Notes: a model not told the origin generated them from the letters alone. 63,574 nt of DNA from a virus (IMGVR_UViG_3300046777_002930:1-63574), one strand, 5' to 3'; positions 16,647 through 36,898 are shown, numbered from the stretch's first letter. Made by a program: numbers and translations.

Positions 16647-16715
16647 TTAAGTTGTTGATTTTCAATGACTTAGGGGGCCCTCCGGCCCGCAAGCGCCTGG
16701 AACGCAATGACTTAC
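16647..16715 (+). repeat. 69-bp dispersed element, copy 1
   Basis: 27-bp palindrome + GGGGCCCTCCGGCCC + 27-bp palindrome. Confidence 0.92.
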
Positions 16716-16805
16716 ATCACGAAACATTTTGAATAAAATTCCTTGACGCGAAGATAAAAAACCACGATATTAAAGACTCAACCAACCAACCAAACAACCA
16801 CTAAA

Positions 16806-18935
16806 ATGATTATTGCAGATAAAACCAACAAAGTTCACTTCGACGGAAATTTCGAGACTATCTCGGTAGGCATTGACGAAAAGAATATCGCGCATTTCTT
16901 TCGCATGATTGCCAATCTTTATCAAGACCCCACGATGGCAGTTCTTCGTGAGGTCGGCGCGAATTGCGTTGATTCATTGATTGAAGCAGGAACGCAGAAG
17001 GTCGGATGGGAATTGCATCTTCCCTCGCGTATGGATGCAAATGTTCGCTTCGTGGATCACGGAGTCGGCATCTCTCACGATCAAATGATTCGGATTTATT
17101 CAATCATTGGCGCGTCCAGCAAGCGCGGCAACAACGATCTTATCGGAGGGTTCGGAGTCGGCAAGTGGTCGCTTTGCTCTCTGGTCAATAACTTTCAAGC
17201 TATCTCTCGCTTCAACGGAACCAAGTCGCAATACTTTATTTCGTTGCAATCAAATGGCTTGCCGGACATTCGACTAATCAAGAGTGAGCAAACATCTGAA
17301 CGCAATGGTTTCGAGGTAAAGTTCCTTTGCCCTGATCGTTATGTAAATGAGTTCAATAATAAAGTCGCTAGGGCTTATCGCTTCTTTTCTATCAAGCCAA
17401 ATGTTTTTCTTGATGGTGTAAAGAAGGATATTGTTTTTAATTCTGATAGCGTTCTATTTGACGGAGGCACAGAGGGTTTCTCCATTTTCAATGGGCATGG
17501 TTCTCCCATCGTTGTCATGGGTGGAGTAGGGTATCGCCTTCCTTCTGAAACTCTTTTGGAGAATAAGAAGTTCACCAAGTTCAAGTCTTTGCTTGACTGC
17601 AACATGGCTATTCATGTTCCGATTGGTGAATTTAGTATCACTCCTTCCCGCGAAGCTATTCAGTTAGATGACCTTACATTGAATCGCTTATTCAATAAGC
17701 TGGAACAAATTGTCAACTCCTTTGTTCCCAAGATGCAAGCCGACATGGATAATTTCAAAGGCAATACTTGGCAAGCTAAACTCAAGCTCAAAGAATTGCG
17801 CGAGACATTTAGTTTTCTGCCGGATACTCTCAAGCTCAACTGGCAGGGTAAATCACTTACTGCTTCCGCTTTAAGCGTTAAAGATGCAAAAGTTTCCCTG
17901 TATTCGACACAATCTTGGAATAAGAAAATCTCTGTTGATGAGAAGGTAAAGAATATCGAAGTCAACAAAAGAGCATTTCTGTTCTTGAATGATTTGAAGA
18001 TCGGCGGCATTGGTCGCGCAAAACAATTCCTTCTTGAGCAGAAAAAGAAGGACAACTACTCTGGATATGCTTTTTATATCTTCAATGAAGCTGAAAAGGC
18101 TACATTTATTAAAGAAACTGAATGGGTTGGAGATTTTGTTCTGACAAGTTCTCTGCCTAAAGTTCCTACAAAGGGTAAAACCTCGACTGCTTCTGGTTCT
18201 GTTGTATATGGTTCTTTCCGTATGCGTTCTGGTCGCTCTTGGGGAGTTCACGATTCGGTTTGTCACTATGACAGCAACGAGGCTAAAACTGCTGACGAGT
18301 TTATTCTATTCCCAACTCTTTCCAACAAAGTATATGGTGAAGCTATTGCAACAAATGTTGATCCTATTATCAAATTGCTTTCTGCTGAATACAAAAAGAA
18401 TCTGTTCGCTTTGTTCCTTCCAAAGTCGGAATATGACGCGAATAATGCTTCAACCTTCGATGGCAAGCCAATGGTTAAGTTTTGCAATCTGGTTAAGACC
18501 AATGATTTCAAAAAGATTATCAGCAAAGGCACGAACGCTATCTCTTGGAATGTATTCAAAAATAAATTCCGCGAAGTGAGCAACTGGAATTTCCGTGGAA
18601 TGCCAGATCAAATGATGGAACTTGCGAAAGTGCTTAACAAGTCGCACATTATCTCTGTGGCTTGCCAAAATCTCAAGTCGATTATTCAAGATGATTCAAA
18701 GTGCTTCGATAATAAAACACTTTCGATCCTTCGACTTGCTGGAAGTGCTGACCTCTCTGATGGAGATAAAGTTATTACAAAAGAAATAGAATCTTTTGCT
18801 AATGCCGTGAAAGAAGTTATTGCAAAATATCCATTGATTTTACCCGTTTCTGATGAATACAATTTCAAACAACACGCAACGCCTCTGGCAGAATACATTG
18901 GCTTTATCGACTCGAAAGATGCCAATAAAAAATAA
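16806..18935 (+). CDS. rIIA: RIIA-like protein (N-terminal GHKL ATPase)
   Basis: LREVGANCVDS, DHGVGIS, SSKR, GGFGVGK, ITPSREAI; followed by an rIIB-like gene. Confidence 0.85.
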   Translation: MIIADKTNKVHFDGNFETISVGIDEKNIAHFFRMIANLYQDPTMAVLREVGANCVDSLIEAGTQKVGWELHLPSRMDANVRFVDHGVGISHDQMIRIYSIIGASSKRGNNDLIGGFGVGKWSLCSLVNNFQAISRFNGTKSQYFISLQSNGLPDIRLIKSEQTSERNGFEVKFLCPDRYVNEFNNKVARAYRFFSIKPNVFLDGVKKDIVFNSDSVLFDGGTEGFSIFNGHGSPIVVMGGVGYRLPSETLLENKKFTKFKSLLDCNMAIHVPIGEFSITPSREAIQLDDLTLNRLFNKLEQIVNSFVPKMQADMDNFKGNTWQAKLKLKELRETFSFLPDTLKLNWQGKSLTASALSVKDAKVSLYSTQSWNKKISVDEKVKNIEVNKRAFLFLNDLKIGGIGRAKQFLLEQKKKDNYSGYAFYIFNEAEKATFIKETEWVGDFVLTSSLPKVPTKGKTSTASGSVVYGSFRMRSGRSWGVHDSVCHYDSNEAKTADEFILFPTLSNKVYGEAIATNVDPIIKLLSAEYKKNLFALFLPKSEYDANNASTFDGKPMVKFCNLVKTNDFKKIISKGTNAISWNVFKNKFREVSNWNFRGMPDQMMELAKVLNKSHIISVACQNLKSIIQDDSKCFDNKTLSILRLAGSADLSDGDKVITKEIESFANAVKEVIAKYPLILPVSDEYNFKQHATPLAEYIGFIDSKDANKK

Positions 18936-18956
18936 ATAAAATTGTGGTGGTTGAAC

Positions 18957-18986
18957 GAGGGGCGCGGAGTGGTTGCCGCGCCTCTC
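18957..18986 (+). terminator. GC-rich hairpin after rIIA
   Basis: GAGGGGCGCGG-AGTGGTTG-CCGCGCCTCTC. Confidence 0.6.
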
Positions 18987-19011
18987 ACCTTTTCCGTGTA
19001 TATTTCTGTAT

Positions 19012-19080
19012 ATAAAGCATTGAAACTCAACGACTTACGGGGCCCTCCGGCCCGCAAGTCACTGGGTATCAGCAACTTAC
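19012..19080 (+). repeat. 69-bp dispersed element, copy 2
   Basis: same architecture as copy 1. Confidence 0.92.
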
Positions 19081-19144
19081 AATTGAAAAAAACTTGAAAA
19101 AAAATTTGACACCGCTATAAAAAAAGTCCATAGTGGTATCTGTT

Positions 19145-20032
19145 ATGAATCCAACTAACAACCAAACCAACCAATACGCTAACCAAACTCTCATCGGACG
19201 CTTCGTGTCCAAAGAGCAAATCACGCTTATCTTCTCCGAGGATACTGCGGTAATCGACAACTCCAATCCCAAGTTCGCCGAAATCCTCCAACTCTGCAAA
19301 GACGGCAAGTATGCAGAAGCGGCGGCACTCGCAACGATCAAGGATCAAATCAATCAAACCTTCGACGGAGATATTCGCGTTGTAGGTGGCGAGGTTATTT
19401 ATGACGGCAAGCCTCTCCACAATGTTATGTGCGAACGCATCCTCGATATTATGCGCGAGGGTCTTGACGCAACTGGACTCGTAAAGTTCCTTGAGAACCT
19501 TATGCAAAACCCTTCCTATACTGCTGTTCAAGAACTCTATTTGTTTCTTGAGGCAAATCAAATTCCAATCACAGAGGATGGTCACTTCCTCGCATGGAAA
19601 AAGATTCGCAACAACTGGAAGGATATTCATTCCAACTCTGTCGATTATTCTGTTGGAGCTACACCTTCCATGAAGCGGAATCAAGTCGATCCAGATAGGG
19701 AAAAGACTTGCTCTTATGGATTGCATTGCGCGGGATGGGATTATCTTCCTCACTTTGGTTCCAATGGTGATTCTGACCGAATCGTTATTGTCAAGGTGAA
19801 TCCTGCTGATGTCATTGCGGTTCCAAATGATTACGGCAATGCAAAGATGCGTGTCTGCAAAATGGAGGTCTTGCGCGAATATACTGACCGCAAGGTAGAA
19901 GCAGAGGAATTTTCTCACTCTGTTGTTTCCTCTAATGGCGAGGCACTTTACACGGAAGATGATCTGGATGAGGCATACAAGAATGGGTATGACGATGCCT
20001 ACGATGAACTTCGGTGGGACGAAGAAGAATAA
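19145..20032 (+). CDS. rIIB: RIIB-like protein
   Basis: FLENLMQNPS, LYLFLE, ITEDGHFLAWK, CSYGLH, VKVNPADVIAVP..KMRVC. Confidence 0.88.
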   Translation: MNPTNNQTNQYANQTLIGRFVSKEQITLIFSEDTAVIDNSNPKFAEILQLCKDGKYAEAAALATIKDQINQTFDGDIRVVGGEVIYDGKPLHNVMCERILDIMREGLDATGLVKFLENLMQNPSYTAVQELYLFLEANQIPITEDGHFLAWKKIRNNWKDIHSNSVDYSVGATPSMKRNQVDPDREKTCSYGLHCAGWDYLPHFGSNGDSDRIVIVKVNPADVIAVPNDYGNAKMRVCKMEVLREYTDRKVEAEEFSHSVVSSNGEALYTEDDLDEAYKNGYDDAYDELRWDEEE

Positions 20033-20057
20033 TAAATCTTCATAGCAAAACAAGAGA

Positions 20058-20087
20058 GAGGGAGGCGAAAGCCTCCTTCTTTTTTTT
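20058..20087 (+). terminator. intrinsic terminator
   Basis: GGAGGC-GAAA-GCCTCC followed by a T run. Confidence 0.85.
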
Positions 20088-20122
20088 GTATTTTTATTTG
20101 GTATCGCAAAACGCGATACCTT

Positions 20123-20191
20123 GTAAGTTACTCATCATCAACGACTTACGGGGCCCCCGGGCCCGCAAGTGCCTGGTACTCAACGATTTAT
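20123..20191 (+). repeat. 69-bp dispersed element, copy 3
   Basis: same architecture. Confidence 0.92.
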
Positions 20192-20245
20192 AAAAACAAT
20201 TTTTTATACTTGCTTCGGAATTAAAATTCAATTATATTCGGACAT

Positions 20246-20581
20246 ATGAATAAAAAGCAAAGAGGCAGGAAGAAAGGGTCGGTCAGCTTCATGCAAGTTG
20301 AACTGGCAGAACTGAATAGAGTATTGAAACCAGATGCGAAGGTAATTCTGTCAATCAGATATGCCCAGCTTGTGGGCTTGAACGGAAAGCCAGTTAGTTC
20401 GAATCTCGATGTCTTGGGGCATTGCGTAGCAAGCGGCAAGGCAGAAATGGAACTAGTTGACTTTGGCGACGAAGAAGATATCCCTTCTCCGGCTGCTAAT
20501 AAAAAGAAAGAAGAGCCGAAAGACGACGATCACATTTCAACACAAGCAGAACTTGAGACCTTTGACGAAAACCCTTTTTAA
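20246..20581 (+). CDS. hypothetical protein
   Basis: RGRKKGS basic N-terminus, acidic tail; promoter directly upstream. Confidence 0.7.
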   Translation: MNKKQRGRKKGSVSFMQVELAELNRVLKPDAKVILSIRYAQLVGLNGKPVSSNLDVLGHCVASGKAEMELVDFGDEEDIPSPAANKKKEEPKDDDHISTQAELETFDENPF

Positions 20582-20592
20582 ATTAAAAAAAA

Positions 20593-20892
20593 ATGCAAAC
20601 ACAAAACATCCCAACCAAAGTATCAATCAAGAATCTCCGTCAAAGCGGATGGAAGGTTCGAGTTCTTCATGAGCGCAATTATTTTTTGAGGAATAGGCTT
20701 GATGGAAATTCAACAGAGGTTTCAGCAAGGGGAGGACGAACCGAGATTCAAATTACAAGTCCAGATAAAAAGATTAACGCTTCCGGTCAAGCGATCTGCT
20801 CCGAAGAAGATAACTTCAATAGGAAAACTGGAAATGCTATTGCTCTAGGCAGGGCGTGGAGTGTAGTGCTTAAATCTTTAGGTATTGTATAA
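20593..20892 (+). CDS. conserved phage hypothetical protein
   Basis: GQAICSEEDNFNRKTGNAIALGRA motif. Confidence 0.7.
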   Translation: MQTQNIPTKVSIKNLRQSGWKVRVLHERNYFLRNRLDGNSTEVSARGGRTEIQITSPDKKINASGQAICSEEDNFNRKTGNAIALGRAWSVVLKSLGIV

Positions 20893-20944
20893 AAAAATTT
20901 GACTATTGTATAAAAACCTACCATAATACAATACTAATACTAAT

Positions 20945-21943
20945 ATGAATCAAGACACAACCAACGACCACTTCTCACACTTGATTGGGCAAGAAAAGCT
21001 GAAAGCTCAACTGCGCTTTTATCTTAACTCTTTCCGCGAAACTCAAATTCTGCCTACTATTCTTTTGGTTGGCGGAAGGGGTTCGGGCAAAACAGAGTTT
21101 GCCGTATCATTGGCACGAAACTTGCGAATGGAAGCTATGGGCGGTCGCCCAAAGCCTTTATTGACAGTCAATTCCAGCACCGTGAAAAATGTTAGGCAGT
21201 TCGTGGAGGATATTGTTTTGAAGTATGTCAACGATCAGACACTTACTTTGTTCTTTGATGAATGTCATGCGCTTCCAGAAAGCGTTCAGACTGCGCTACT
21301 TACAATCCTTAACCCAAACAAAAAGAACTCAAACCTTTTCCGCTATGAGGATAGCGAGATTATGTTTGACTTCAAGAAGGTTAGTTTCGTATTTGCAACA
21401 ACCGATCCTCAAAAATTAGTAGGGCCTTTCAAGGATAGGTGTCGCGTGTTGCACATGGACGAATACGAATACAAAGACCTTGGTAAAATCGTTAGAGAGA
21501 ATCTTGATGAAGGGCTTGAGATTCCAGATGATGTCATGGATCATGTAGCGTCTGTGTGTCGTGGTAATGCTCGTAATGCTGTGCTTATGGCTAAAGACAA
21601 TATCGTTCAGTATATGAAGGGCAGTAAGGTTTCCAAGATGTGCCACAAGCATTGGGAGACTCTTTGCGATGTATTGGGCATCATGCCTATGGGATTGGAA
21701 AGCTCCGAGGTTCAAGTTCTTAAAGCACTAAATGATTTTCCTATGGGTTGCTCTCTGAATAACCTATCTGCAAAAACTGGATTCACAAGGCAAGCTATTA
21801 TGCTAGAGTTTGAGTCTTATCTAGTTAAGAAGGGTCTTATGCAGATTAAATCTGGCGGCAGAGAGATTACTAGCAAGGGCAAGGAATATCTTAACAAGTA
21901 TGTATTTAAGACAACTGGAGGATTTACAAATGCACTCTCGTAA
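20945..21943 (+). CDS. ruvB: RuvB-like AAA+ ATPase (Holliday junction branch-migration helicase)
   Basis: IGQE, Walker A GGRGSGKT, Walker B FFDECH, FATT, RGNAR, C-terminal ESYLVKKGLM..GGREIT. Confidence 0.85.
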   Translation: MNQDTTNDHFSHLIGQEKLKAQLRFYLNSFRETQILPTILLVGGRGSGKTEFAVSLARNLRMEAMGGRPKPLLTVNSSTVKNVRQFVEDIVLKYVNDQTLTLFFDECHALPESVQTALLTILNPNKKNSNLFRYEDSEIMFDFKKVSFVFATTDPQKLVGPFKDRCRVLHMDEYEYKDLGKIVRENLDEGLEIPDDVMDHVASVCRGNARNAVLMAKDNIVQYMKGSKVSKMCHKHWETLCDVLGIMPMGLESSEVQVLKALNDFPMGCSLNNLSAKTGFTRQAIMLEFESYLVKKGLMQIKSGGREITSKGKEYLNKYVFKTTGGFTNALS

Positions 21944-22511
21944 GAGCGTTAGACTTGACAATCTTGTAGATGGTAGTCCTTTTACCATACCATTTCTTGG
22001 AGACCAATACAAGCTATTGTATCTTGTTAGGGGAGGCGATTCAACTTGCAAAGTTCAAGGATATAAAAAGACAGAAGCCGGTGGGTATTCACCATTCTCT
22101 GATTTCTTTTCCCCTGGGACAGAAGTTGTTAGCGATAAAACAAGAAACATTCTATCAATCTCAAAAGATGGAGAGCTTTCTATTCCAAAGGAATATGTGT
22201 CTGAAATTTTAAGTGAAAAACAAGAAGAAAAAAAAGTAAAAAAAAGTAAAGGAGTAAAGAAAATGAGCGTAGAAACACAATCGCCAGTTGGCGTTAAAAA
22301 TGCAGTAGGTCGCCCTAAAAAGCATAGGATCGAGCTTCCTCATGGAGAGGAATTTACAGTCAGTAAGATTGCTGAAAAGCTCGGTGTAAAGAAGTTTGTA
22401 GTTAATAATGAAATCGCTAGGCTTCAACGAGAGACTCCAGAAAGTCTCCAAGTTGTTGGCTCTGTGCCACAAGGCAAAGGCAAGCCAGCTAGAGTTTTCA
22501 AACTAATTTGA
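21900..22511 (+). CDS. putative DNA-binding protein
   Basis: GRPKK and HTH-like FTVSKIAEKLGV. Confidence 0.6.
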   Translation: MYLRQLEDLQMHSRKSVRLDNLVDGSPFTIPFLGDQYKLLYLVRGGDSTCKVQGYKKTEAGGYSPFSDFFSPGTEVVSDKTRNILSISKDGELSIPKEYVSEILSEKQEEKKVKKSKGVKKMSVETQSPVGVKNAVGRPKKHRIELPHGEEFTVSKIAEKLGVKKFVVNNEIARLQRETPESLQVVGSVPQGKGKPARVFKLI

Positions 22512-22559
22512 AGAATGTGGGTTGGGGGTTATCCTGTAAAGCAAAACCCCAGATTTATT

Positions 22560-22775
22560 ATGTCTAATCCAAATAAAACATTGCAACAACATTTAATCAA
22601 TTCAAAAGTAAAGACTGCCATTCTCTTTCTGACATCAGATAGAATACCAGCAGAGGAAAACTTTGACTTTGTTCTGTCTGCTTTGGAAAATTGTTCTCTT
22701 AAAGAGGCTAGGACTCTTTTGTATGAGAATTATTATGATGAGATTTTGGATTGGTCGAACATGAACGAGTGGTAA
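22560..22775 (+). CDS. hypothetical protein
   Basis: likely start MSNPNK. Confidence 0.55.
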   Translation: MSNPNKTLQQHLINSKVKTAILFLTSDRIPAEENFDFVLSALENCSLKEARTLLYENYYDEILDWSNMNEW

Positions 22776-22776
22776 C

Positions 22777-22845
22777 ATAACACCCTGTAAGTCAGCGACT
22801 TACGGGGCCCTCGGGCCCGTAACCTATTGATTACGAGCGCTTTAT
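22777..22845 (+). repeat. 69-bp dispersed element, copy 4 (last plus-oriented copy)
   Basis: core GGGGCCCTCGGGCCC; begins 2 nt after a stop codon. Confidence 0.9.
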
Positions 22846-22848
22846 GTT

Positions 22849-23019
22849 TTAGAAGTTAAACTGGTATTGGTCTGGATCGTCTTGATGTTCTTGTTTGGGA
22901 AGCAATACAGCCCATCCAAGTGAGTTCAAAGCATTAAAGGCGGCATCATTTTCATTTTCAGCTTCTACCTCGAAAGAAAGATTGCCGTCACTATGGTTTG
23001 ATATAATATATTTTTTCAT
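22849..23019 (-). CDS. small hypothetical protein (56 aa)
   Basis: manual translation MKKYIISNHSDGNLSFEVEAENENDAAFNALNSLGWAV... Confidence 0.65.
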   Translation of the reverse strand: MKKYIISNHSDGNLSFEVEAENENDAAFNALNSLGWAVLLPKQEHQDDPDQYQFNF

Positions 23020-23036
23020 TTTATTTAATTTTTAAT

Positions 23037-23111
23037 TGGAGCATCCTGTCAGAATCGAACTGACGAATACAGCTTTTGCAGAGCCGTGCCTTACCACTTG
23101 GCTAAGGATGC
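23037..23111 (-). tRNA. tRNA-Cys(GCA)
   Basis: CGGCT-CTGCAAA-AGCTG anticodon arm, U73, CCA end. Confidence 0.9.
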
Positions 23112-23221
23112 TTTAACTCATTCATCACCATTTAATAAACATAGATAGAAAAACCCCCATTAGAATTAGAACTGCTACTGGCATATTGTTTGTTTCCATA
23201 TTATTTATTTTTTGTTTGTTT

Positions 23222-23938
23222 CTAGTATTGCGGAATACTATCCGCAAAGTCTCCTTCCTCAAGAACATAAGACCAGTATCGGGAATCCGTATATCCTTGC
23301 TTCCTATCCCAATAGATGCAACGCGCAACATAGCAGGGAACATTATATTCAAAGCACATTCTAACCCAATGAGCTTCTATGTCTTGATATAGTTTGGCGT
23401 TTTTAGTTTGATCCAATCCGTATAGCTGAAACAAATGAGTATCAAGGCAAGTAATCTCTGCTTCCGTTGGATAAAGCATTTCGATAAAGAAGCTACTCTT
23501 TGCCATACCAAGACCAAGAATAGATTTCTCAATCCTATTGCGGTATTGCGTCCAGCTTTCCTGTTCTGCTTTGTGATAAGAGCATGGATCAGACCAATAC
23601 TTTTTTGTAAAGTCTTTGATGAAGCGAACCCTGTTGTTGTAAAGTCCTGCTCCGCTCTGTCTCAATTTAGTGTCGAGAATGTCCCATTGGTTGATCCAAG
23701 TCCACCAATCCTTAATCAAGGAATAGGCGGCAATGTTCGACTTCCAGCTTGTGTGGACAGATGTATAAGCAAAAAGAGCGCGTTGAAACCTTTCTGTATC
23801 ATTCAGAGGTTTAAGTGCGCCCCAATAAGCAGTCTGGAATTTAATCTCTTTATTTGTCAAAGAAGCAAAGAATGCCTCTGCTTCTGAAGTTTGGATTTGT
23901 GCGGTTTGGTTTTTGGTTTTTGTGGTAGTGGTTGGCAT
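23222..23938 (-). CDS. HhH-type DNA glycosylase/AP-lyase-like protein
   Basis: HhH-like GLGMAKSSF and CLDTHL. Confidence 0.65.
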   Translation of the reverse strand: MPTTTTKTKNQTAQIQTSEAEAFFASLTNKEIKFQTAYWGALKPLNDTERFQRALFAYTSVHTSWKSNIAAYSLIKDWWTWINQWDILDTKLRQSGAGLYNNRVRFIKDFTKKYWSDPCSYHKAEQESWTQYRNRIEKSILGLGMAKSSFFIEMLYPTEAEITCLDTHLFQLYGLDQTKNAKLYQDIEAHWVRMCFEYNVPCYVARCIYWDRKQGYTDSRYWSYVLEEGDFADSIPQY

Positions 23939-23991
23939 ACATAATCAAGGTAGGTGTTTTTGTTGTGCTTGTCAAGGCATAATCTTCAGTT

Positions 23992-24060
23992 GTAAATTGT
24001 TGGCACGCAATCACTTACGGGCCGGAGGGCCCCGTAACCTGTTGGTTACGAGGAGTTTGC
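23992..24060 (-). repeat. 69-bp dispersed element, copy 5 (first minus-oriented copy)
   Basis: core GGGCCGGAGGGCCCC. Confidence 0.92.
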
Positions 24061-24226
24061 ATCTACTTTGAGTATCGCGCCTTGTATGAGTATTCGTATA
24101 GTCTGCCTTGGCGGAAAATTTGCTCAAGGTGAGTTTCGTTGGTGAATGCCTCGATAGAGAGCGCGAGCAGTGAAGTTTTCCGCTCCTTAAAGTTAAACAA
24201 TAGTTCAAGTATTTTTTTCATTTTTA

Positions 24227-24547
24227 TTAGGCTTCAATTTGAAGGTTAGAATAACTATTATCTCCCTCATAGATAGAGGTATGCCACTCGCTAGTTGAGA
24301 CTTTTCCTTTTACGAGATCGTATTCGATATTGTCTCCATAGTCAGAGCCATCACCAGCCCCAGAATATGAATAAACATCCCATGCCCAATCCTCTATATC
24401 ACTTGCAAGGTCTTGGTTCCAATCTGGCATCATATCCACATCGAGATTGCCTTCATCACTTCCGCCACTAAAGCGGAGGATGATTTTTTTAATACCAAGT
24501 TCTTTAGCTTTGTTATATATTTCTTTTTTAAGTGGTTCTGCTCTCAT
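24227..24547 (-). CDS. DUF6878-like protein
   Basis: FSGGSDEG motif. Confidence 0.6.
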   Translation of the reverse strand: MRAEPLKKEIYNKAKELGIKKIILRFSGGSDEGNLDVDMMPDWNQDLASDIEDWAWDVYSYSGAGDGSDYGDNIEYDLVKGKVSTSEWHTSIYEGDNSYSNLQIEA

Positions 24548-24906: not shown

Positions 24907-24907
24907 A

Positions 24908-25171: not shown

Positions 25172-25188
25172 GGTTGTTGAATTTTGAA

Positions 25189-25486: not shown

Positions 25487-25555
25487 ATAAATAACTACAA
25501 CGCAACGACTTACGGGCCGGAGGGCCCTCTAACCTATTGGTTATGAGGGATTTGG
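25487..25555 (-). repeat. 69-bp dispersed element, copy 6
   Basis: same architecture. Confidence 0.88.
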
Positions 25556-28109: not shown

Positions 28110-28114
28110 CTTTT

Positions 28115-28485: not shown

Positions 28486-28554
28486 ATAAACGATTGAATA
28501 TCAATGACTTACGGGCCGGAGGGCCCCGCAACTCAATGCGGGACAACAACTTAC
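28486..28554 (-). repeat. 69-bp dispersed element, copy 7
   Basis: same architecture; overlaps the stop codon of 28551-28850. Confidence 0.92.
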
Positions 28555-29074: not shown

Positions 29075-29144
29075 GTGGTTGGTTTTGTTGGTTTGGTTGA
29101 CTGACTCTATTACTTATATTGGAATTTTATACAATGGTCAAGGA

Positions 29145-29636
29145 TTAAATCCACCAAGAAGGGATATTGCCCATCTTCCATTTAGCAAATTCTCTTTTGT
29201 CATTGAGATAGTATGTTCTATATGCGGTGACGGCATCGGCATTCTTATACTCATCTGGCATAGCTTGTGCAAATGGTGTCAATCTATCTGATGGAATAAG
29301 ATTATCCATATTGCACAAATGCTCTATACCTTTTTGGCAAGAGTGAATTTTAGAATATCTTTTTGTATATTCATTGCAAAGCTCAAGAGCATGAACAGCC
29401 GCCCACATAAAGTTTTCTCTTGAATCTCCGCACCATCTTGTGCATGGGTGATTGTGATAGCCGCCTTTAAGTGGAGTGCCTTTAGATGTCAAGGGCATTT
29501 TTTCTGGTTTAGCACCATGACGAATGACTGCGCTTCCGAGTTGTTGGAATAGCTCAAGAACCATCTTGACAATATGCTTGTCGCAGTTGTATTGAGCCGC
29601 AATGCTTGGGTCTTGATCGAGGACGAAGATATTCAT
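29145..29636 (-). CDS. pyrimidine-dimer DNA glycosylase (DenV/endonuclease V)-like
   Basis: MNIFVLD, DKHIVKM, HNHPCTRW, FAQAMPDEYK, AYRTYY. Confidence 0.8.
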   Translation of the reverse strand: MNIFVLDQDPSIAAQYNCDKHIVKMVLELFQQLGSAVIRHGAKPEKMPLTSKGTPLKGGYHNHPCTRWCGDSRENFMWAAVHALELCNEYTKRYSKIHSCQKGIEHLCNMDNLIPSDRLTPFAQAMPDEYKNADAVTAYRTYYLNDKREFAKWKMGNIPSWWI

Positions 29637-29839
29637 TTGATAGAAACTCTAAAATAGTCTTTGCCTCGACGCAAGGAAATAATTTCACTAGGCTTTACTT
29701 TTCTAGTATAGCCCTCGCCATCGAACATATCTGTGACAATGCCAGCAATAGTTTTTAATGATACCCTTCCTTCTTTTTCATCAGAAAGAGTGATGTGATC
29801 TCCTATTTGGATTTGAGGGGTTCGAGTTATTTCTTTCAT
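29633..29839 (-). CDS. hypothetical protein
   Basis: promoter upstream, ATGA overlap downstream. Confidence 0.6.
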   Translation of the reverse strand: MKEITRTPQIQIGDHITLSDEKEGRVSLKTIAGIVTDMFDGEGYTRKVKPSEIISLRRGKDYFRVSIK

Positions 29840-29974
29840 AGCAGAGTCAGAATAATTTTATTTTGTATAAAAGTCAAGGAGGTTTTTGTAGATTACGGCC
29901 CGCGATGTATTAAATAAGGCAAATAAGCTAAACTACACAAAAGGTTGCAAAATGTGCAATGTCATGCGCACCCT

Positions 29975-30043
29975 CTAACTCATTGATATTCAAGCACTTG
30001 CGGGCCCGAGGGCCCCGTAAGTCGTTGATGTTGAACAACTTAT
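29975..30043 (-). repeat. 69-bp dispersed element, copy 8
   Basis: same architecture. Confidence 0.92.
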
Positions 30044-30057
30044 GCTTTCATCTGGGC

Positions 30058-30093
30058 AAAAAGAGAGCGCGTCCCACCACAAGACGCGCTCTC
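30058..30093 (-). terminator. intrinsic terminator
   Basis: GAGAGCGCGTC-TTGTGGTGG-GACGCGCTCTC plus T run on minus strand. Confidence 0.8.
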
Positions 30094-30108
30094 GACCCAT
30101 ACGAAAAA

Positions 30109-30414
30109 CTATCCAATCACAAAGTCTTGAACATCAGAGAGTTTGAACCGCTTAATTGACGCGCTCGTTTCATCGTTGTTCGGAATGCCTTGCAGGTAAA
30201 GGTTTTGCTTGTGCTCAACAAGCGAGCCGTTTGCATAACTATTTCCCCAGCTTGTGCCTCCGTGGGTTCGGTTGGCAAGGTTCGCGCCAATAGTAAGGTT
30301 TCGCCGCTTTCCGTTGTAAGTGAATCCAGCAAAGCAAGTTCCTTTGCTTGTCACGATTTGATTGATGAGTTCTGCAAGCCGTTGGGCTTTTTGATTTTGT
30401 GTTTGTGTGTTCAT
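30109..30414 (-). CDS. hypothetical protein, paralog of 37128-37454
   Basis: GGTSWGNS..YLQG..IKRF. Confidence 0.7.
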   Translation of the reverse strand: MNTQTQNQKAQRLAELINQIVTSKGTCFAGFTYNGKRRNLTIGANLANRTHGGTSWGNSYANGSLVEHKQNLYLQGIPNNDETSASIKRFKLSDVQDFVIG

Positions 30415-30515
30415 TTTTTTTGTTTTTTTATTTATTTTTTTTCCGAAAGTATCATATAAAGTCCGACTATAAAGCCTAGAATGATAAGTAGTTCCATATC
30501 AGACATTTTTGTTGC

Positions 30516-31187
30516 TTAATTTTTCACAACAAAGCCCGATGTGTCTTTTTTACCCTTGCCCTTGGCTTTCAAGCCGACGATCACTCCGCGAGGGTCAAGA
30601 AAGCGGAGATCAGTCGCGTCACCATCCACAACTTGCTTGCCGAGATAGGTTTGCGGGAGTTTATCAAAAACAACCGCCACATTGCCACCCATAGCCGCGA
30701 CAAGCTCAACTTTGCTTTGATTGTTTTCTTTACGGCTGAATGTAAGATGATAGTTTGCAGGCAGTTCCCCATTAAGGAATTGAATCATTCGCGCAAGGTT
30801 CGGCGTATAGTCATAGAAACGAAGGTTTTGGAAAGATTCCATGTCGATCATATTGTGCCAAGGCAGATCCGAAAGCACATTGAGACGCACGGCAATCTGT
30901 TTGCCCTTGCCAGCTTGCTTGTTGAGGTTGGCAAGTTCCTTGTTTAAGGCGGCGAGAAAATCGGCGCGGCGTTCGATCAAAAACTTTGCTTTGTTGATTC
31001 GCGCCTCTTGGACATTAGAGAAAACGCCCATGCCCGAAGTATTGAGGCAAGCCGCCTCACATCCTGGCGAACGATGTGGGCAAAGCTGCTTGCCGGATAG
31101 GTTAGCAGGAGCAAGGGAAAGCCCTTTTGTAGTCCAGTCGAGTTTGGTTCCCTTTTCAAGTTTGGTATTTGTGGCGAGTAGTGTCAT
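30516..31187 (-). CDS. Gp88-like phage protein
   Basis: LCP..C...CL, VRLNVLSDLPW, FYDYT, NYHLTFS, DGDATDLRFLD. Confidence 0.75.
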   Translation of the reverse strand: MTLLATNTKLEKGTKLDWTTKGLSLAPANLSGKQLCPHRSPGCEAACLNTSGMGVFSNVQEARINKAKFLIERRADFLAALNKELANLNKQAGKGKQIAVRLNVLSDLPWHNMIDMESFQNLRFYDYTPNLARMIQFLNGELPANYHLTFSRKENNQSKVELVAAMGGNVAVVFDKLPQTYLGKQVVDGDATDLRFLDPRGVIVGLKAKGKGKKDTSGFVVKN

Positions 31188-31286
31188 GGTGTTGGTGGTG
31201 TTGATTACGGAAAACAGAATAAGGCTATTGTATAAAATTGGCAAGGGATTTTTTCCAATTTTTTTCTTTTTATTTTTTTAATGCAA

Positions 31287-31346
31287 GCAATCCTCGTGCC
31301 AGGCCAGGTTGGCATGGTTTATGCTGGGGGGGCAGGAATCGTGCCA
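31287..31346 (-). promoter_or_regulatory. two sigma-54-like -24/-12 boxes
   Basis: TGGCACG-AGGA-TTGC and TGGCACG-ATTC-CTGC on minus strand. Confidence 0.7.
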
Positions 31347-31349
31347 GTT

Positions 31350-31418
31350 GTAAGTCGTTGCGTATCAAGGACTTGCGGGCCCGAGGGCCCCGTAAGTCGT
31401 TGGTATTCAACAACTTAC
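31350..31418 (-). repeat. 69-bp dispersed element, copy 9
   Basis: GTAAGTCGTTG-N5-CAAGGACTTGC GGGCCCGAGGGCCCC GTAAGTCGTTG-N5-CAACAACTTAC. Confidence 0.95.
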
Positions 31419-31427
31419 GGGTTTGAT

Positions 31428-31931
31428 TTACAGATAAGCGTGAGAGGAAAAGAAGTTGAGCGAGGACATATCTAATGAGGGTGCGCCGCCGTCAAGTTTC
31501 TTAAATGCAGCTTGTTCCGAAGTTTTGTAAAGCATGAAACCTTCTCTTTTAATTTCACTATATTCCTTTTCTGCAAGTGCTTGAAATTCAGCAAGAATGC
31601 CGCCTTTCTTACCTTTATGTTGTGGATTGCTTTGAGAATTAGCTTGCATCAATTTTTCAGTCACAAGACCTTTAATCATATCTTCTTCCGTAGATAGGAA
31701 GTAGGCAAAGGTATCGCAAGTGAAATGTAAGTATCCTTCGCCCGTGTTAGCGTCATCAGAGCAGAAGGCGGAAGTGCAGTTAGGAGCCGCCGCGCCCACA
31801 TTAAAGAAGCGGTTGAATTGCTGGTTGATTTGCTCTTTGGTTCCTTCTATGCCAACGGCAATTTCAGACCCATAGGATGAGATTAGGATGTTGGCGTTTT
31901 TGTTTTCGTTGTTGGTTTGTGTTGTTGTCAT
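31428..31931 (-). CDS. hypothetical protein
   Basis: likely start MTTTQTN. Confidence 0.65.
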   Translation of the reverse strand: MTTTQTNNENKNANILISSYGSEIAVGIEGTKEQINQQFNRFFNVGAAAPNCTSAFCSDDANTGEGYLHFTCDTFAYFLSTEEDMIKGLVTEKLMQANSQSNPQHKGKKGGILAEFQALAEKEYSEIKREGFMLYKTSEQAAFKKLDGGAPSLDMSSLNFFSSHAYL

Positions 31932-32065
31932 GGCTTTTAATTTATTTGGTTGAGTTAATAGTGTCAAGGAATTATTTTCCATTATGTTGGCAAGCATAAG
32001 CTGTTAAAGCAAGGATAGTTATGATCCAAACTATTACTATCCCATATACAAGGTCGTCGGTCATA

Positions 32066-32404
32066 TTACCAGTCTCCTCCGTCGAAGTAGTCGCCGCCGT
32101 AGTCCTCGTCAGTTCCCCATCCAGCAGACGCAAGCGCGTTCGCGTCAGCGTCCACATCGTCGCGGAAATTGTCCTCGCGTGGTTCGCGGTTGAATCCATG
32201 CTCGTCATCGTCGTCGTCCTGCTGGTCGTCGTCATATTCGGTCATGTCGTCGCCATCATCATGCTGGCGTTGCGCGTCATAATCTGCCAAGTCTTTGGCG
32301 TGCTGCTCGTCCAGCCAATCGGCATAGGAGGAGTCAAGTTCCTCGCAAGTCACGCGAGCGAGTTCGTTCATTTCGTTGTCGGGTTGGGTGGTGTTGTTGT
32401 TCAT
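32066..32404 (-). CDS. highly acidic small protein
   Basis: D/E-rich; ALASAGWGTDEDYG. Confidence 0.75.
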   Translation of the reverse strand: MNNNTTQPDNEMNELARVTCEELDSSYADWLDEQHAKDLADYDAQRQHDDGDDMTEYDDDQQDDDDDEHGFNREPREDNFRDDVDADANALASAGWGTDEDYGGDYFDGGDW

Positions 32405-32478
32405 GGTTCTAATGTATAAAACGCCCGAAAAAACGCAAGGAATTTTTTTTATTTTTTTTAATTTTTATTTTCACCTAT

Positions 32479-32526
32479 TCAACTACCATGCCAGGCCCGG
32501 TATTCTGCCATTCAAGAAGCGTGCCA
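32479..32526 (-). promoter_or_regulatory. two sigma-54-like boxes 33 bp apart
   Basis: TGGCATG-GTAG-TTGA and TGGCACG-CTTC-TTGA. Confidence 0.55.
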
Positions 32527-32539
32527 AGTTTCTCGTGTT

Positions 32540-32608
32540 GTAAGTCGTTCATTGCCAATGACTTACGGGCCCGAGGGCCCTGTAACTCGTTGAGTCGCAG
32601 GGGTTTAT
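32540..32608 (-). repeat. 69-bp dispersed element, copy 10
   Basis: same architecture. Confidence 0.93.
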
Positions 32609-32609
32609 G

Positions 32610-32822
32610 TTACCAGCAGTTTACGGCGTCAGCTTGCCTCTCTGCATGAACCTCGGCAAGGCTCTTGAAGCTCTCAAGTGCTTCTTCTTTAGTTTCATCA
32701 TCTTCCAGAGAATCCATGATAGCTTGGATTGTCCAGCACTCTACAATTACATCCCATCCTCCATCATCATAATGTTCTTGGGCGTAGTTATATATATATT
32801 TAGCGATTTCTTCTTTATTCAT
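32610..32822 (-). CDS. hypothetical protein
   Basis: likely start MNKEE; YAQEHYDDGGWDVIVECW. Confidence 0.65.
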   Translation of the reverse strand: MNKEEIAKYIYNYAQEHYDDGGWDVIVECWTIQAIMDSLEDDETKEEALESFKSLAEVHAERQADAVNCW

Positions 32823-32835
32823 ATTATTGGTTAGT

Positions 32836-33111
32836 TTAGTGTTTGATGTAGGGTTTGATGATGTCCAGTTCCTCAAGGATTGTGCTGATGTGATCGACCC
32901 AGTTGAGTCCATAAACATCGCTCATATGGAGGTCGTAGTAGGCTTGAAGGATTGTCTCTTTGGACGCGCCTTCGTATAGACCATCTCCGTTCATTGTGGA
33001 CTCAATCTCGGCGTAAACCTTGTGCTTGTCCTCTGGGGTCAAGCCGATGAGGGTGTAAGCGGCAATGTTGAACAGGACGCTGTGATGTGGTGCTTGTTGT
33101 GTTGTTGTCAT
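32836..33111 (-). CDS. hypothetical protein
   Basis: ORF in operon. Confidence 0.65.
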   Translation of the reverse strand: MTTTQQAPHHSVLFNIAAYTLIGLTPEDKHKVYAEIESTMNGDGLYEGASKETILQAYYDLHMSDVYGLNWVDHISTILEELDIIKPYIKH

Positions 33112-33128
33112 GTGTGTTGGTGTTTAGG

Positions 33129-33395
33129 TTAAATTGCTCCAGCGCGTTTGGCGTAAGCTTTAAGCTTCTTGAATACAAGGTCTTGAGATACCTTGTCCGT
33201 AGGGAAGTTGGTCAATCCCCTCTGGCACATATCGAACTCGTGAGTCTCGGAGCCGTAACCCCCTGGGGCTTCATCATTAGCCAAGATTGTGCCTTTAGCT
33301 TCGTTGACTTGCGTGACTCGGAATGGAATGTCAGTTCGTGTTCCGTGGTATCTGTAGAGGACAAGATCCCCTACCTTCGGTGTTTGTATTAGCAT
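33129..33395 (-). CDS. hypothetical protein
   Basis: likely start MLIQTP. Confidence 0.6.
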   Translation of the reverse strand: MLIQTPKVGDLVLYRYHGTRTDIPFRVTQVNEAKGTILANDEAPGGYGSETHEFDMCQRGLTNFPTDKVSQDLVFKKLKAYAKRAGAI

Positions 33396-33414
33396 GGTGG
33401 CGTTGGTGTTTAGG

Positions 33415-33606
33415 TTAAAATGAGCGGTGGTTGGTCTGGTATGGAAGCTCCTGCGCGAGCAAGTCCATGACAGCTTTATTGTCTGGCTCGTCCATGATCT
33501 GCCCAAGAATCCAAAGGCAAACATCCTCCCATTGCTGGGTTGTCCGCTCGCCCCTCTGGAGGCTGGCGAGGTTATTCATGTAGCATTCAATCAATTCAAC
33601 TTTCAT
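33415..33606 (-). CDS. hypothetical protein, paralog of 34709-34864
   Basis: TTQQWEDVCLWILGQIMDE. Confidence 0.65.
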   Translation of the reverse strand: MKVELIECYMNNLASLQRGERTTQQWEDVCLWILGQIMDEPDNKAVMDLLAQELPYQTNHRSF

Positions 33607-33685
33607 GGTGTTTAAGGTAGCATGGATGTCTAAAAAGCACAAGGGATATTTTTATTTTTTTTGAATTTTTTTTACATGACTGCAA

Positions 33686-33733
33686 GCAGTAGCTATGCCA
33701 AGTATAGATTTCGCCTATTCAAGAATCGTGCCA
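33686..33733 (-). promoter_or_regulatory. two sigma-54-like boxes 33 bp apart
   Basis: TGGCATA-GCTA-CTGC and TGGCACG-ATTC-TTGA. Confidence 0.6.
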
Positions 33734-33783
33734 AGTTCTAATTTTGTAAGAAAAAGACCCCATTATTTCTTTCAATTCTCTTC

Positions 33784-33852
33784 TTAAGTCGTTGAATAGC
33801 AGGCACTTGCGGGCCCGAGGGCCCTGTAACTCGTTGAGTCACAGGGGTTTAG
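33784..33852 (-). repeat. 69-bp dispersed element, copy 11
   Basis: same architecture. Confidence 0.93.
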
Positions 33853-33922
33853 GTTTATTCTGAACTTTTAGCCAACAAGAAGAATCCGAGAAGGGTTCCA
33901 ATTAGAAAAGTCATATAAGTAA

Positions 33923-34426
33923 TTAGTCAGCAATGATTTCGAGAGTATATTTTTTGATAACATTGTCGGCTTCTTGCTTCCAACGGCGCAACTGCCTATC
34001 GTGGAACTCTTTGAGAAGGGTTTCCTCAAGGACGATTTCGCCGGTATCAACTTCGATCTCTTGAGCTTGCTCGTTAAGTGCATCATATTGAAGTCTTTCA
34101 GCAGACTTTTCTGATATTCTCCAAAGCTGGGAAAGGTTTTTCGCGTTTCCATCCTCCCATTTAGTAAAGCCAGCCCAATACTTTCCATTTTCAAAAGAGT
34201 GCATCGGCTTTCCATCCATGTCTGAAAGGTGCATTGCGGCGGCATCTTCAAGCTGTGGGAATGCCTCAAGAATTTCTTTGTGAATTGCTCCGAAGACAGA
34301 TTCGCGTCCATTCTCGACAACGCGACCAGTTAAGGAAAAGTGGGGTTTTTGATCGCCAATTTTGTGAAGGACAAAGTCCGCTTCGATGTAGTTTTTTGGG
34401 TCTTGGTTTTTTGTGGTTAGTTTCAT
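33923..34426 (-). CDS. hypothetical protein
   Basis: HFSLTG..GAIHKEIL..HLSDMDGKPMH. Confidence 0.7.
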   Translation of the reverse strand: MKLTTKNQDPKNYIEADFVLHKIGDQKPHFSLTGRVVENGRESVFGAIHKEILEAFPQLEDAAAMHLSDMDGKPMHSFENGKYWAGFTKWEDGNAKNLSQLWRISEKSAERLQYDALNEQAQEIEVDTGEIVLEETLLKEFHDRQLRRWKQEADNVIKKYTLEIIAD

Positions 34427-34473
34427 TTTGTGGTTGGTTTGGTTTTTTTATATTATAGGTTAATCGGAAAAGG

Positions 34474-34662
34474 TCAATTTTTATTTTTGAAAAAACTTGG
34501 AAGATTTATTTTGATTTGTGGCTTCCAATCATTAACGGTCTGATAGGCTTCAAGCTCTGCGTTGATGTTGCCAAAAACTGAAATTTCTGGATACTTGGCA
34601 AGTAATTTTTCAAAATCTTTTTTGAAATTTTGAAGGTTCTTTTCGGGAGTGATGATTTTCAT
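34474..34662 (-). CDS. hypothetical protein
   Basis: promoter upstream. Confidence 0.6.
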   Translation of the reverse strand: MKIITPEKNLQNFKKDFEKLLAKYPEISVFGNINAELEAYQTVNDWKPQIKINLPSFFKNKN

Positions 34663-34708
34663 AACAGTATTTAGATTATAGGGTGAATTTAAAAGGTCAA
34701 GGATTATT

Positions 34709-34864
34709 TCAGCGATTTTTCAAACGAACAAAAACATCTTTGTTTTCTTCCATCAGTTCGCCAAGAATTTCAAAACAGATTTTGAACCATTCTTCTTGAG
34801 TGATCCAGCCCATTTCAAACCTTGCTTTTGCCCATTCATAGCGGGAAACCATGTCTTGTTTCAT
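34709..34864 (-). CDS. hypothetical protein (51 aa)
   Basis: manual translation MKQDMVSRYEWAKARFEMGWITQEEWFKICFEILGELMEENK. Confidence 0.65.
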   Translation of the reverse strand: MKQDMVSRYEWAKARFEMGWITQEEWFKICFEILGELMEENKDVFVRLKNR

Positions 34865-34930
34865 GTTTTTAATGTATAAAATTATTCCGATTCTGTCCAG
34901 ATATTTTTTTTAATTTTTTATTTGGCATAA

Positions 34931-34945
34931 GCAAAAATCGTGCCA
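34931..34945 (-). promoter_or_regulatory. consensus sigma-54 -24/-12 box
   Basis: TGGCACG-ATTT-TTGC. Confidence 0.7.
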
Positions 34946-34956: not shown

Positions 34957-35025
34957 GTAAATCGTTGGGCGCCAACAAGTTACAGGCCCGAGGGGCCCGT
35001 AAGTCGTTGACCTACAAGGCTTTGC
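34957..35025 (-). repeat. 69-bp dispersed element, copy 12
   Basis: same architecture. Confidence 0.9.
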
Positions 35026-35413: not shown

Positions 35414-35642
35414 GGTTTTTGTTTGGTTGTTTGTGGTTGTTGTTTTGTTTGAAAATTAAAGCCCGTTGCGTCCTACATATTCGGCAAAGCTCATAAACAG
35501 GCTGAACATTGCATAAGAGAAAATGCAGACGATGATTGTTGGAACGATTTGCTCTAGTGTTTCGATTGCTTTCATGTTTTTGAATATATTCGATGAATCT
35601 AAAATGTCCAGATATTTTTTTATTTTTTTCATTTTTATTCAA

Positions 35643-35690
35643 GCATTATCTGTGCCAACTTTCCGATTTCGCCATACAGGAATCGTGCCA
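35643..35690 (-). promoter_or_regulatory. two sigma-54-like boxes 33 bp apart
   Basis: TGGCACA-GATA-ATGC and TGGCACG-ATTC-CTGT. Confidence 0.6.
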
Positions 35691-35694: not shown

Positions 35695-35763
35695 GTAAGT
35701 CCTTGATTGCCAATGAGTTACGGGCCCGAGGGCCCCGTAAGTCGTTGATATTCAGCAACTTAC
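35695..35763 (-). repeat. 69-bp dispersed element, copy 13
   Basis: same architecture. Confidence 0.95.
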
Positions 35764-36271: not shown

Positions 36272-36279
36272 AGTCTCTA

Positions 36280-36483
36280 TCAGTTGAAGCGTTCCGTTTC
36301 GCGTTGTTCCCTAGCTTGCTCACGGGCGATCCTCTTTAGAATCGCATCCTCTTGTGCGAGGCTTTGAGCGAGCCAGTCATTGCCGCAAGCATCTTCCATG
36401 AAGCGGTATTTATTGTAAAGGTTCTCGCCAGCGTAGTCAGAGAGGCGGTCAATCAGTTCGTCTTGGTTCAAGTATTTCTTCAT
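36280..36483 (-). CDS. hypothetical protein
   Basis: TTGACA promoter directly upstream. Confidence 0.65.
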   Translation of the reverse strand: MKKYLNQDELIDRLSDYAGENLYNKYRFMEDACGNDWLAQSLAQEDAILKRIAREQAREQRETERFN

Positions 36484-36528
36484 GGTGTGAATCTATTCTA
36501 AAAGCGTTAGTGTGTCAAAGGATTTTTT

Positions 36529-36693
36529 TCAATTTTCGTATTGTCCGAAAAGCTCGTATCGTCCATCAAAGGATTGTTCTTCTTCGTAGTCGAGAACGAA
36601 GGGGATGTTGCCCGCGCTTACACACATGGCAAAGAAGCTGTCTGTGTCTTGGATGTCTGCGGTGTTTGTGGTAGTGTTGTTTTCGTTGTTCAT
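36529..36693 (-). CDS. hypothetical protein
   Basis: likely start MNNENN directly after a -10 box. Confidence 0.55.
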   Translation of the reverse strand: MNNENNTTTNTADIQDTDSFFAMCVSAGNIPFVLDYEEEQSFDGRYELFGQYEN

Positions 36694-36770
36694 GTTTTTA
36701 AGGTATTCGATAATGCCTAAAAGGTCAAGGGGAGATTTTATTTTTTTTGAATTTTTTATTTTTGATGCAA

Positions 36771-36818
36771 GCAGGGAGCGTGCCAAGTCTCGATATTCGC
36801 CATTCAGGAATCGTGCCA
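36771..36818 (-). promoter_or_regulatory. two sigma-54-like boxes 33 bp apart
   Basis: TGGCACG-CTCC-CTGC and TGGCACG-ATTC-CTGA. Confidence 0.65.
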
Positions 36819-36829
36819 AGTTCCATGTC

Positions 36830-36898
36830 GTAAATCGTTGATTATCAAGGACTTGCGGGCCCGAGGGCCCCGTAAGTCGTTGATATTCAGCAACTTAC
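36830..36898 (-). repeat. 69-bp dispersed element, copy 14
   Basis: same architecture; three exact IHF-consensus matches. Confidence 0.95.

Follow-up and report, generated by a model that had tools for sequence, protein, structure and literature searches.

An oriented 69-bp palindromic element at the 3' ends of early phage transcription units, and its possible role as a protein-bound DNA boundary

In large lytic phages, strong early promoters stand close together by the dozen, and how the units behind them are kept separate is poorly understood outside T4, as is the free swapping of early "host-takeover" genes. A virus record from IMG/VR (IMGVR_UViG_3300046777_002930, positions 1-63574; this whole stretch of 63,574 bp is called the window here) may bear on both questions: a 69-bp palindromic element recurs 14 times among its early genes. 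What is this element for? The window has an estimated completeness of about 40%, and the whole phage genome is put at roughly 160-190 kb. We find that the elements are real and conserved, have a fixed geometry, are oriented, and keep to the 3' ends of transcription units.

The original prediction gave 14 start coordinates, all of which proved correct: a repeat search, a core pattern and a covariance model agree on them. The copies, and one possible decayed copy, are as follows.

16647..16715, plus strand: element 1, upstream of the rIIA promoter; 73.5 bits on the plus strand
19012..19080, plus strand: element 2, between rIIA and rIIB; repeat family D7; terminator-like hairpin (read by eye) after the rIIA stop codon
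20123..20191, plus strand: element 3, after rIIB and a canonical terminator
22777..22845, plus strand: element 4, at the convergent junction of the arms, 1 nt past the stop codon at 22775; no promoter next
23992..24060, minus strand: element 5, from the repeat search and the covariance model
25487..25555, minus strand: element 6, the most degenerate copy; weak fold, all invariant columns kept
28486..28554, minus strand: element 7; the stop codon of the upstream open reading frame (ORF) lies within it (gap -4)
29975..30043, minus strand: element 8, with a canonical terminator ahead of it
31350..31418, minus strand: element 9, from the covariance model
32540..32608, minus strand: element 10, from the covariance model
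33784..33852, minus strand: element 11, from the covariance model
34957..35025, minus strand: element 12, from the covariance model
35695..35763, minus strand: element 13, from the covariance model
36830..36898, minus strand: element 14, the best score (88.4 bits); three exact IHF-consensus matches
37906..37964, minus strand: possible decayed copy (13.5 bits, E 0.15), preceding the minus arm's first promoter

The repeat search united 13 copies in one family and put the copy at 19012 in a second (D7), whereas the core pattern matched 14 times in the window against 0.04 matches expected by chance. A covariance model built from the 14 copies returned the same 14 places, each spanning model positions 1-69 with no insertion or deletion. 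The accompanying claim that no copy lies outside 16.6-36.9 kb also stands, the next best match to the model being the 13.5-bit one. The layout is 11+5+11, 15, 11+5+11, that is, two 27-bp palindromes around a 15-bp G+C-rich mini-palindrome, and the palindrome centres are exactly 42 bp, or about four helical turns, apart; this 27+15+27 arrangement and spacing, as first described, hold in all copies. Both 5-nt spacers vary in sequence, never in length. The core mini-palindrome has a stem of 5-6 bp of G+C and a loop of 3-5 nt, and read along transcription it is alike in 14/14 copies (GGGGCCCTC[C/G]GGCCC). The palindromes are present as described, but imperfect, with 78% of stem cells pairing in the 14 copies.

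A profile scan of the window and its relatives, which had been proposed as a check, recovered the 14 window copies and the same element in four virus contigs (G001-G004), where it occupies matching places and the rIIA proteins are 70-75% identical. The 134-kb contig G004 contains 16 copies, all within 3.9-23.7 kb. As G003 has the same element spacing and scores as G004, it was left out of separate counts; the window, G001, G002 and G004 make up a set of 48 copies, of which 48/48 are exactly 69 nt long. Pattern scans detected the element in 94 metagenome stretches, mostly as arrays (80 stretches were fetched), restricted it within IMG/VR to G002-G004, gave just four single matches and no arrays in 185,579 species genomes, and found no match in cultured phages. 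From 309 positions, with 58 ambiguous and duplicates dropped, we obtained a larger set of 185 unique copies, for which the AT skew of the flanking sequence gave the orientation. Among cultured phages there is no close relative, the large terminase and rIIA showing at most 28% identity to any of them. The 17 DNA runs listed as holding the window stretch all bear freshwater or lake-water metagenome labels, two of the runs possibly being the window's own source. Our literature search found no description of a 69-bp element of this build.

Where the elements lie relative to genes is the first clue to function. Plus-strand genes extend from rIIA (16806-18935) and rIIB (19133-20032) onward to 22775, and minus-strand genes from about 37.5 kb down to 23 kb, so that two gene arms converge near 22.9 kb. 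By the better-scoring model strand, the elements match transcription in every case, on the plus strand for copies 1-4 (4/4) and on the minus strand for copies 5-14 (10/10); copies 5-14 have the core of copies 1-4 in reverse-complement form, and the orientation therefore tracks the gene strand. The placement near upstream stop codons that had been pointed out is true of ten of the 14 elements, which begin -4 to +15 nt from the stop codon, and not of the remaining four, which begin 65-104 nt from it. Flank AT skew assigns 11 elements to convergent junctions and 3 to divergent ones.

The link to promoters, in turn, is looser than first proposed. An A-rich tract and a sigma-70-like promoter follow 13 of the 14 elements when the sequence is read by eye, in keeping with the view that the elements usually precede the next promoter, but in a promoter consensus scan 6 elements have such a site downstream, and the 48 sites listed overall do not exceed the 43.2 found in shuffles. 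The distance from element to -35 box, again read by eye, ranges from 9 to about 130 nt and is not phased. The first promoter of the minus arm is preceded only by the weak 13.5-bit match. Given the adjacency to stop codons, the promoterless element 4, the variable -35 distance and this lone weak match, the element goes with the 3' end of a unit and not with the promoter. Thus, of the idea that the array marks promoter+gene cassettes, the unit boundary survives, attached to the upstream 3' end, while a coupling to a downstream promoter appears doubtful.

One candidate for a palindrome at such a place is an intrinsic terminator, which we rejected: no T-run is read after any of the 14 copies, and a terminator scan of 15000-34900, which covers 11 elements, lists none of them. 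Terminator-like hairpins are instead read by eye in the gaps before elements 2, 3 and 8; the element is not the main terminator there. The scan lists those before elements 3 and 8 only.

20052..20085, plus strand: canonical terminator, a hairpin with a T-run, in the gap from the rIIB stop codon to element 3
30063..30093, minus strand: canonical terminator 20 nt upstream of element 8

The element could still act in the transcript, as a structured 3' untranslated region (UTR) that ends, processes or stabilises early messages, whether as a long imperfect hairpin cut by a double-strand-specific RNase, as a block to exonucleases, or through an RNA-binding protein that reads the repeated UCAACGACUUAC. 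Orientation along transcription in 14/14 window copies, the start of 10/14 copies at most 15 nt from a stop codon, the excess of convergent over divergent junctions (11 vs 3) and the folding of the best copies into one long hairpin (z -6 to -9) all speak for such a role. So does the core loop: on the coding strand, columns 34-36 consist of pyrimidines alone in 145/185 copies and include two or three pyrimidines in 171/185, which is not an effect of composition, because the skew of the coding strand is A over T.

Against these observations stands the behaviour of the stems. In the 14 copies, a three-hairpin fold pairs 78.3% of cells compared with a mean of 78.0% in shuffled versions, and a single long hairpin pairs below its shuffles; no covariation between stem partners was detected in 14, 48 or 185 copies, and a conserved RNA structure was rejected as a candidate. 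The 40 strongest mutual-information pairs in the 185 copies include zero stem partners and are mostly adjacent or nearby columns. In the same set, 2535/4070 flank-stem cells (just 62%) are Watson-Crick, columns 8-9 are mostly mismatched with columns 19-20, and the sense strand has more A.C mismatches than G.U pairs (538 vs 234). Moreover, the antisense RNA is the more stable one on average (-27.3 vs -25.0 kcal/mol) and in 128/185 copies. Loop and spacer lengths are fixed, which hairpins do not require, and a search of the whole window at the Rfam gathering score returned nine tRNAs only, with no family matching the element. The missing T-runs count against an RNA role as well, as do the canonical terminators upstream of at least two elements, because of which little transcript should reach elements 3 and 8. 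On balance, we consider a function in RNA unlikely. Transcript-side data consist of assembled contigs only, in which stretches without contig cover carry no meaning; one RNA-library contig (24990-25664) spans element 6 and one contig ends at 22774, 3 nt before element 4, and as DNA carry-over is possible, we draw no inference from either.

Pairing is not the conserved property, and an intergenic palindrome need not be a terminator or an RNA hairpin. What is conserved is a set of columns. Twelve positions (A3, A4, T10, A18, T24, T25, A45, A46, T52, A60, T66 and T67) are invariant in 48/48 copies, in which columns 2 and 44 are also always Y, and columns 26 and 68 always R. In the 185-copy set, the invariant columns that were not imposed by the search pattern reach 97-100% (A3 0.97, A4 0.99, T10 0.98, A60 0.99, T66/T67 0.99), and since these pattern-free columns stay in register, the spacers and core keep their length there too. 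Element 6 folds weakly (z -2.9) yet retains every invariant column.

These columns resemble the sites of a known DNA-binding protein. Columns 14-26 and 56-68 fit the IHF consensus WATCAANNNNTTR, a string that turns up in 24 papers, including R at 26 and 68, and columns 2-14 and 44-56 fit its reverse form YAANNNNTTGATW, the Craig-Nash form, including Y at 2 and 44. Each 27-bp palindrome is thus YAANNNNTTGATW joined to WATCAANNNNTTR, or two back-to-back IHF-type sites with the central W in common. In both the 48 and the 185 copies, the conserved columns are the specified IHF positions, the N positions of the IHF motif vary, and the spacing is constant. Ten of the window's 14 exact IHF-consensus matches fall inside the 966 bp of elements; copy 14 indeed holds three exact WATCAANNNNTTR matches, as had been noted.

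We therefore lean, tentatively and with somewhat less than even confidence, towards reading the 69-bp element as a double-stranded DNA boundary that is bound by an architectural DNA-bending protein and placed at the 3' end of every early unit. A host IHF/HU-type protein or a phage protein would bind both palindromes, and in-phase bending of the DNA around the stiff G+C core could produce a compact complex. Such a complex might keep neighbouring strong early units apart, as a polar roadblock and/or as a supercoiling barrier. Dispersed, alike and palindromic, the copies would recombine with each other as a side effect, and the concerted evolution and in-place module inversion described below would follow from this. 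The conserved columns, the lack of covariation and the concentration of exact matches in the elements (10/14) accord with the initial suggestion of sites for a DNA-bending protein, but no gene for such a protein of the HU/IHF family was found in the phage contigs.

Several further observations weigh against this reading. The IHF match is a resemblance, to a degenerate motif: the window-wide count of exact matches, 14 vs 10.2 expected, is not above chance, and columns 20-23, which are N positions for IHF, are 77-86% conserved, which the IHF motif does not explain. Conservation in the 185 copies is higher in the right arms (TCAACGACTTAC) than in the left. The search for an HU/IHF-family gene, negative in the window and in G001-G004, was accompanied by a scan of 30 ORFs of the region that found no DNA-binding Pfam domain, and a 111-aa ORF of the region matched only unnamed viral clusters in the ESM Atlas. 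Close abutment to stop codons fits a 3'-UTR role too. The strand-specific core loop fits an RNA or single-strand role at least as naturally; it is the chief argument for such a role and is not explained by a double-stranded boundary.

This strand specificity is also the starting point for another explanation, in which the G+C core is a single-stranded DNA hairpin signal, either a promoter for an N4-kind phage RNA polymerase, an enzyme that uses a hairpin promoter, or a priming signal on the lagging-strand template. Consistent with it are the core's short stem of 5-6 G+C base pairs, its loop of 3-5 nt and the purine-rich template strand of that loop in most copies; the elements are limited to the early region, and the lineage-specific core variants would be as if the core co-evolved with a phage-encoded reader. 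The large ORFs seen in the window and in its 134-kb relative, however, do not include an RNA polymerase; they code for a tape measure protein, Pol III alpha, DnaB, glycosyltransferases and a subtilase; a Pfam RNA_pol search gave no match and is uninformative, since its control also gave none. Each unit has, by eye, its own sigma-70-like promoter downstream of the element, element 4 at the convergent junction has no gene after it, and a priming role leaves the restriction to 20 kb of a genome of about 160-190 kb unexplained. We regard a single-stranded signal as very improbable.

The remaining question is whether the elements exist to be recombined. The original prediction envisaged cassette shuffling as one possibility, and in that case the elements would primarily be substrates that shuffle promoter+gene modules in the manner of PeSL cassettes, direct copies giving deletions or circles and adjacent palindromic copies giving module inversions. 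Several comparisons are in favour of exchange between copies. Column 31 is G in 16/17 copies of the window and G001 and C in 31/31 copies of G002 and G004, core variants are likewise genome-specific in a set of 23 contigs, and elements at matching positions of different genomes are not mutual best matches, which indicates concerted evolution of the copies. The modules are not in the same order in the window, G002 and G004. A module with an 8-oxoguanine-glycosylase-like gene (f10) and the f11-f13 module keep the same order, but each is inverted in place, with an element at every boundary, when the window, L059, L067 and L110 are compared with G002, G004, L033, L068, L075, L081 and L087. Two successive exchanges between adjacent palindromic elements would yield exactly this arrangement, including the core orientations. 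Finally, 24% of contig pairs (890/3672) retain the same neighbour across an element, compared with 60% (2482/4139) where there is no element.

Other comparisons do not single out the elements. Gene ends with more than one distinct neighbour are similarly common next to elements (35/45) and elsewhere (72/91). The test of whether breakpoints in relatives fall at the elements gave a slight excess, 21% of element encounters (494/2343) vs 16% of control gene junctions (397/2438), and none in the 80-90% identity class (10% vs 12%). In population contigs, the best-supported joints are at gene starts (34426, 34854-34859, 37507 and 37587), and the joints at element edges (32607 and 35693) have just 21-25 nt on their shorter side. 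Searches for Resolvase, Phage_integrase and Y1_Tnp found none in the window or G001-G004, five records that are 16-70% complete, and a site-specific system based on a resolvase, tyrosine recombinase or Y1 transposase was rejected as a candidate as far as these records reach; the proposed search for a recombinase or DNA-binding protein accordingly came back empty for these records and for the 30 ORFs scanned in the region. The strict conservation of length and motif also exceeds what homology alone needs. Of cassette shuffling, then, the permuted modules and the two inversions stand, and shuffling as the main role is, in our estimation, improbable. Taken together, the comparisons favour recognition as double-stranded DNA, predicted to be by a bending protein, with recombination as its by-product.

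The nearest known kinds of element are PeSL cassettes and IHF-binding BIMEs, and the phage element has the defining features of neither. REP and BIME elements, like the one described here, are found at the 3' ends of transcription units. Integron attC sites are a more distant parallel: they are imperfect palindromes at the 3' ends of modules, in one orientation and with a strand-specific feature, all of which the phage element shares. They vary widely in length, however, and integron cassettes are promoterless, whereas the phage element is 69 nt in 48/48 copies, its modules carry promoters (by eye) and no Phage_integrase match accompanies it in the five records. A further parallel is found in Cluster A mycobacteriophages, whose stoperators are asymmetric repressor sites of 13-14 bp scattered across a temperate phage genome. 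These too are protein-binding sites (predicted ones in the present case) that recur many times in small gaps between genes and follow the direction of transcription, with a presumed effect on RNA polymerase as it passes; build and size are unlike, and no repressor or lysogeny gene was seen in the present phage.

PeSL (promoter-early stem-loop) cassettes belong to T4-like myoviruses (PMC4122927; PMC2839356). As far as they are outlined in PMC4122927, both they and the phage element are repeated composite intergenic cassettes between a gene end and the next sigma-70-like early promoter, with an A/T-rich tract upstream of that promoter. Both, according to the same outline, have many copies among small early ORFs, the copies recombine, and neighbouring genes differ between relatives. 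The PeSL stem-loop is there a short one of variable stem, while the phage element is 69 bp long, three-part and fixed in length, and conserves motif columns, not pairing. The phage element also stays with the unit 3' end, is promoterless at the convergent junction and keeps no fixed distance to a promoter (13/14 followed by one by eye, 6 by scan), is only slightly enriched for breakpoints, and, being palindromic, could invert modules as well. The type of host phage differs too: in addition to its distant rIIA and terminase, G004 encodes Pol III alpha, DnaB and a 2730-aa tape measure protein, whose length implies a very long non-contractile or flexible tail. The gene for this protein lies at 121911-130106 in G004 and corresponds to 112-8304 (minus strand) in L131.

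BIME-1 and REP sequences of E. coli resemble the phage element as repeated extragenic palindromic composites of G+C-rich hairpin-forming units and an IHF site, and the account in PMC3333891 credits them with roles as terminators, mRNA stabilisers and topological insulators and with binding of IHF and gyrase. In BIME-1, as described there, two inverted REPs flank a linker with an IHF site; the phage element has the reverse build, with IHF-like palindromes flanking a G+C mini-palindrome. It further differs in being phage-borne, BIME-1 and REP being numerous in a bacterial chromosome, with only 4 single matches and no arrays in the 185,579 species genomes, in its orientation locked to transcription and strictly fixed length, and, from REP, in that no REP-associated Y1 (RAYT) transposase was found in the five records.

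A broader proposal, which we put forward as doubtful, is that the element represents a class of phage boundaries: orientation-locked nucleoprotein complexes made of paired IHF-type sites around a G+C clamp, which end and insulate early units and delimit modules that can flip. If this were so, the elements would replace or supplement intrinsic terminators at early units, and their palindromic form would let promoter-gene modules flip between convergent arms with terminator and promoter logic intact. With 69 bp, about 20 invariant columns and 14-16 copies per genome, the family is a sharply defined test object, which could reveal whether phages mark unit ends using a host DNA-bending protein and whether palindromic boundary elements drive module inversion.

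The surroundings of the array have features of their own. The window repeats and their genes are embedded in a region with 38-46% G+C, flanked by sequence with 27-37%; the element-bearing region (window 16000-38000; G004 1-24000) is 8-15 points higher in G+C than the remaining phage. Window ORFs of 100 aa or more with a match in G004 are, with one exception, inside the element region, which is nearly the sole part common to the window and its 134-kb relative.

Elements 9-14 are followed by 11 boxes that stand one to three in tandem, usually 33 bp apart, before the sigma-70-like promoter.

31286..31346, minus strand: pair of TGGCAC-N5-TTGC-like (sigma-54-promoter-like) boxes immediately after element 9
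starts at 32526/32493, 33733/33700, 34945, 35690/35657 and 36818/36785, minus strand: sigma-54-like boxes after elements 10-14
32478-32526, 33685-33733, 34930-34945, 35642-35690 and 36770-36818, minus strand: spans of these boxes in the distal minus-arm modules

The boxes read TGGCACG-N4-TTGAAT or CTGCTT, close to the sigma-54 -24/-12 consensus; G002 and G004 have them arranged in the same way, and they are also present in L013-L016. A search for a sigma-54 activator gave generic AAA+ matches only, at a RuvB-like gene and one other ORF. The RuvB-like AAA+ protein is full length (20945-21943, plus strand), aligns over residues 11-317 with RuvB structures (E 8e-15) and is 91-99% identical among related phages. 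It has 816 homologues at E <= 1e-10, of which the best 120 are on contigs of up to 223 kb. A 203-aa ORF without a family match overlaps the end of its gene.

In several modules of the minus arm, a -10-like hexamer lies only 6-8 nt before the ATG, with no Shine-Dalgarno sequence, at 34864-34900, 35632-35660, 36693-36720 and 37454-37480 (minus strand), so that the early mRNAs concerned may have no leader or almost none; genes of the plus arm, by contrast, have leaders rich in CA (caaccaacc). A second intergenic motif, likewise conserved (ATTATTTGC.TTATTTA ... CGGGCCGTAAT; family D12), follows elements 7 and 8 at 28381-28453 and 29860-29932; G002 and G004 carry it behind their elements at the corresponding places. 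Long in-frame tandem repeats with a period of 12-24 nt, Thr/Pro-rich by eye, occur in ORFs outside the element region (12750-13420, 41544-41715 and 63346-63561). Four tRNA genes (Cys, Pro, Met and Thr) lie within element-bounded modules at 23037-23111, 27638-27789 and 28115-28187 (minus strand), and five further tRNA genes are found at 604-1391 and 14454-14528.

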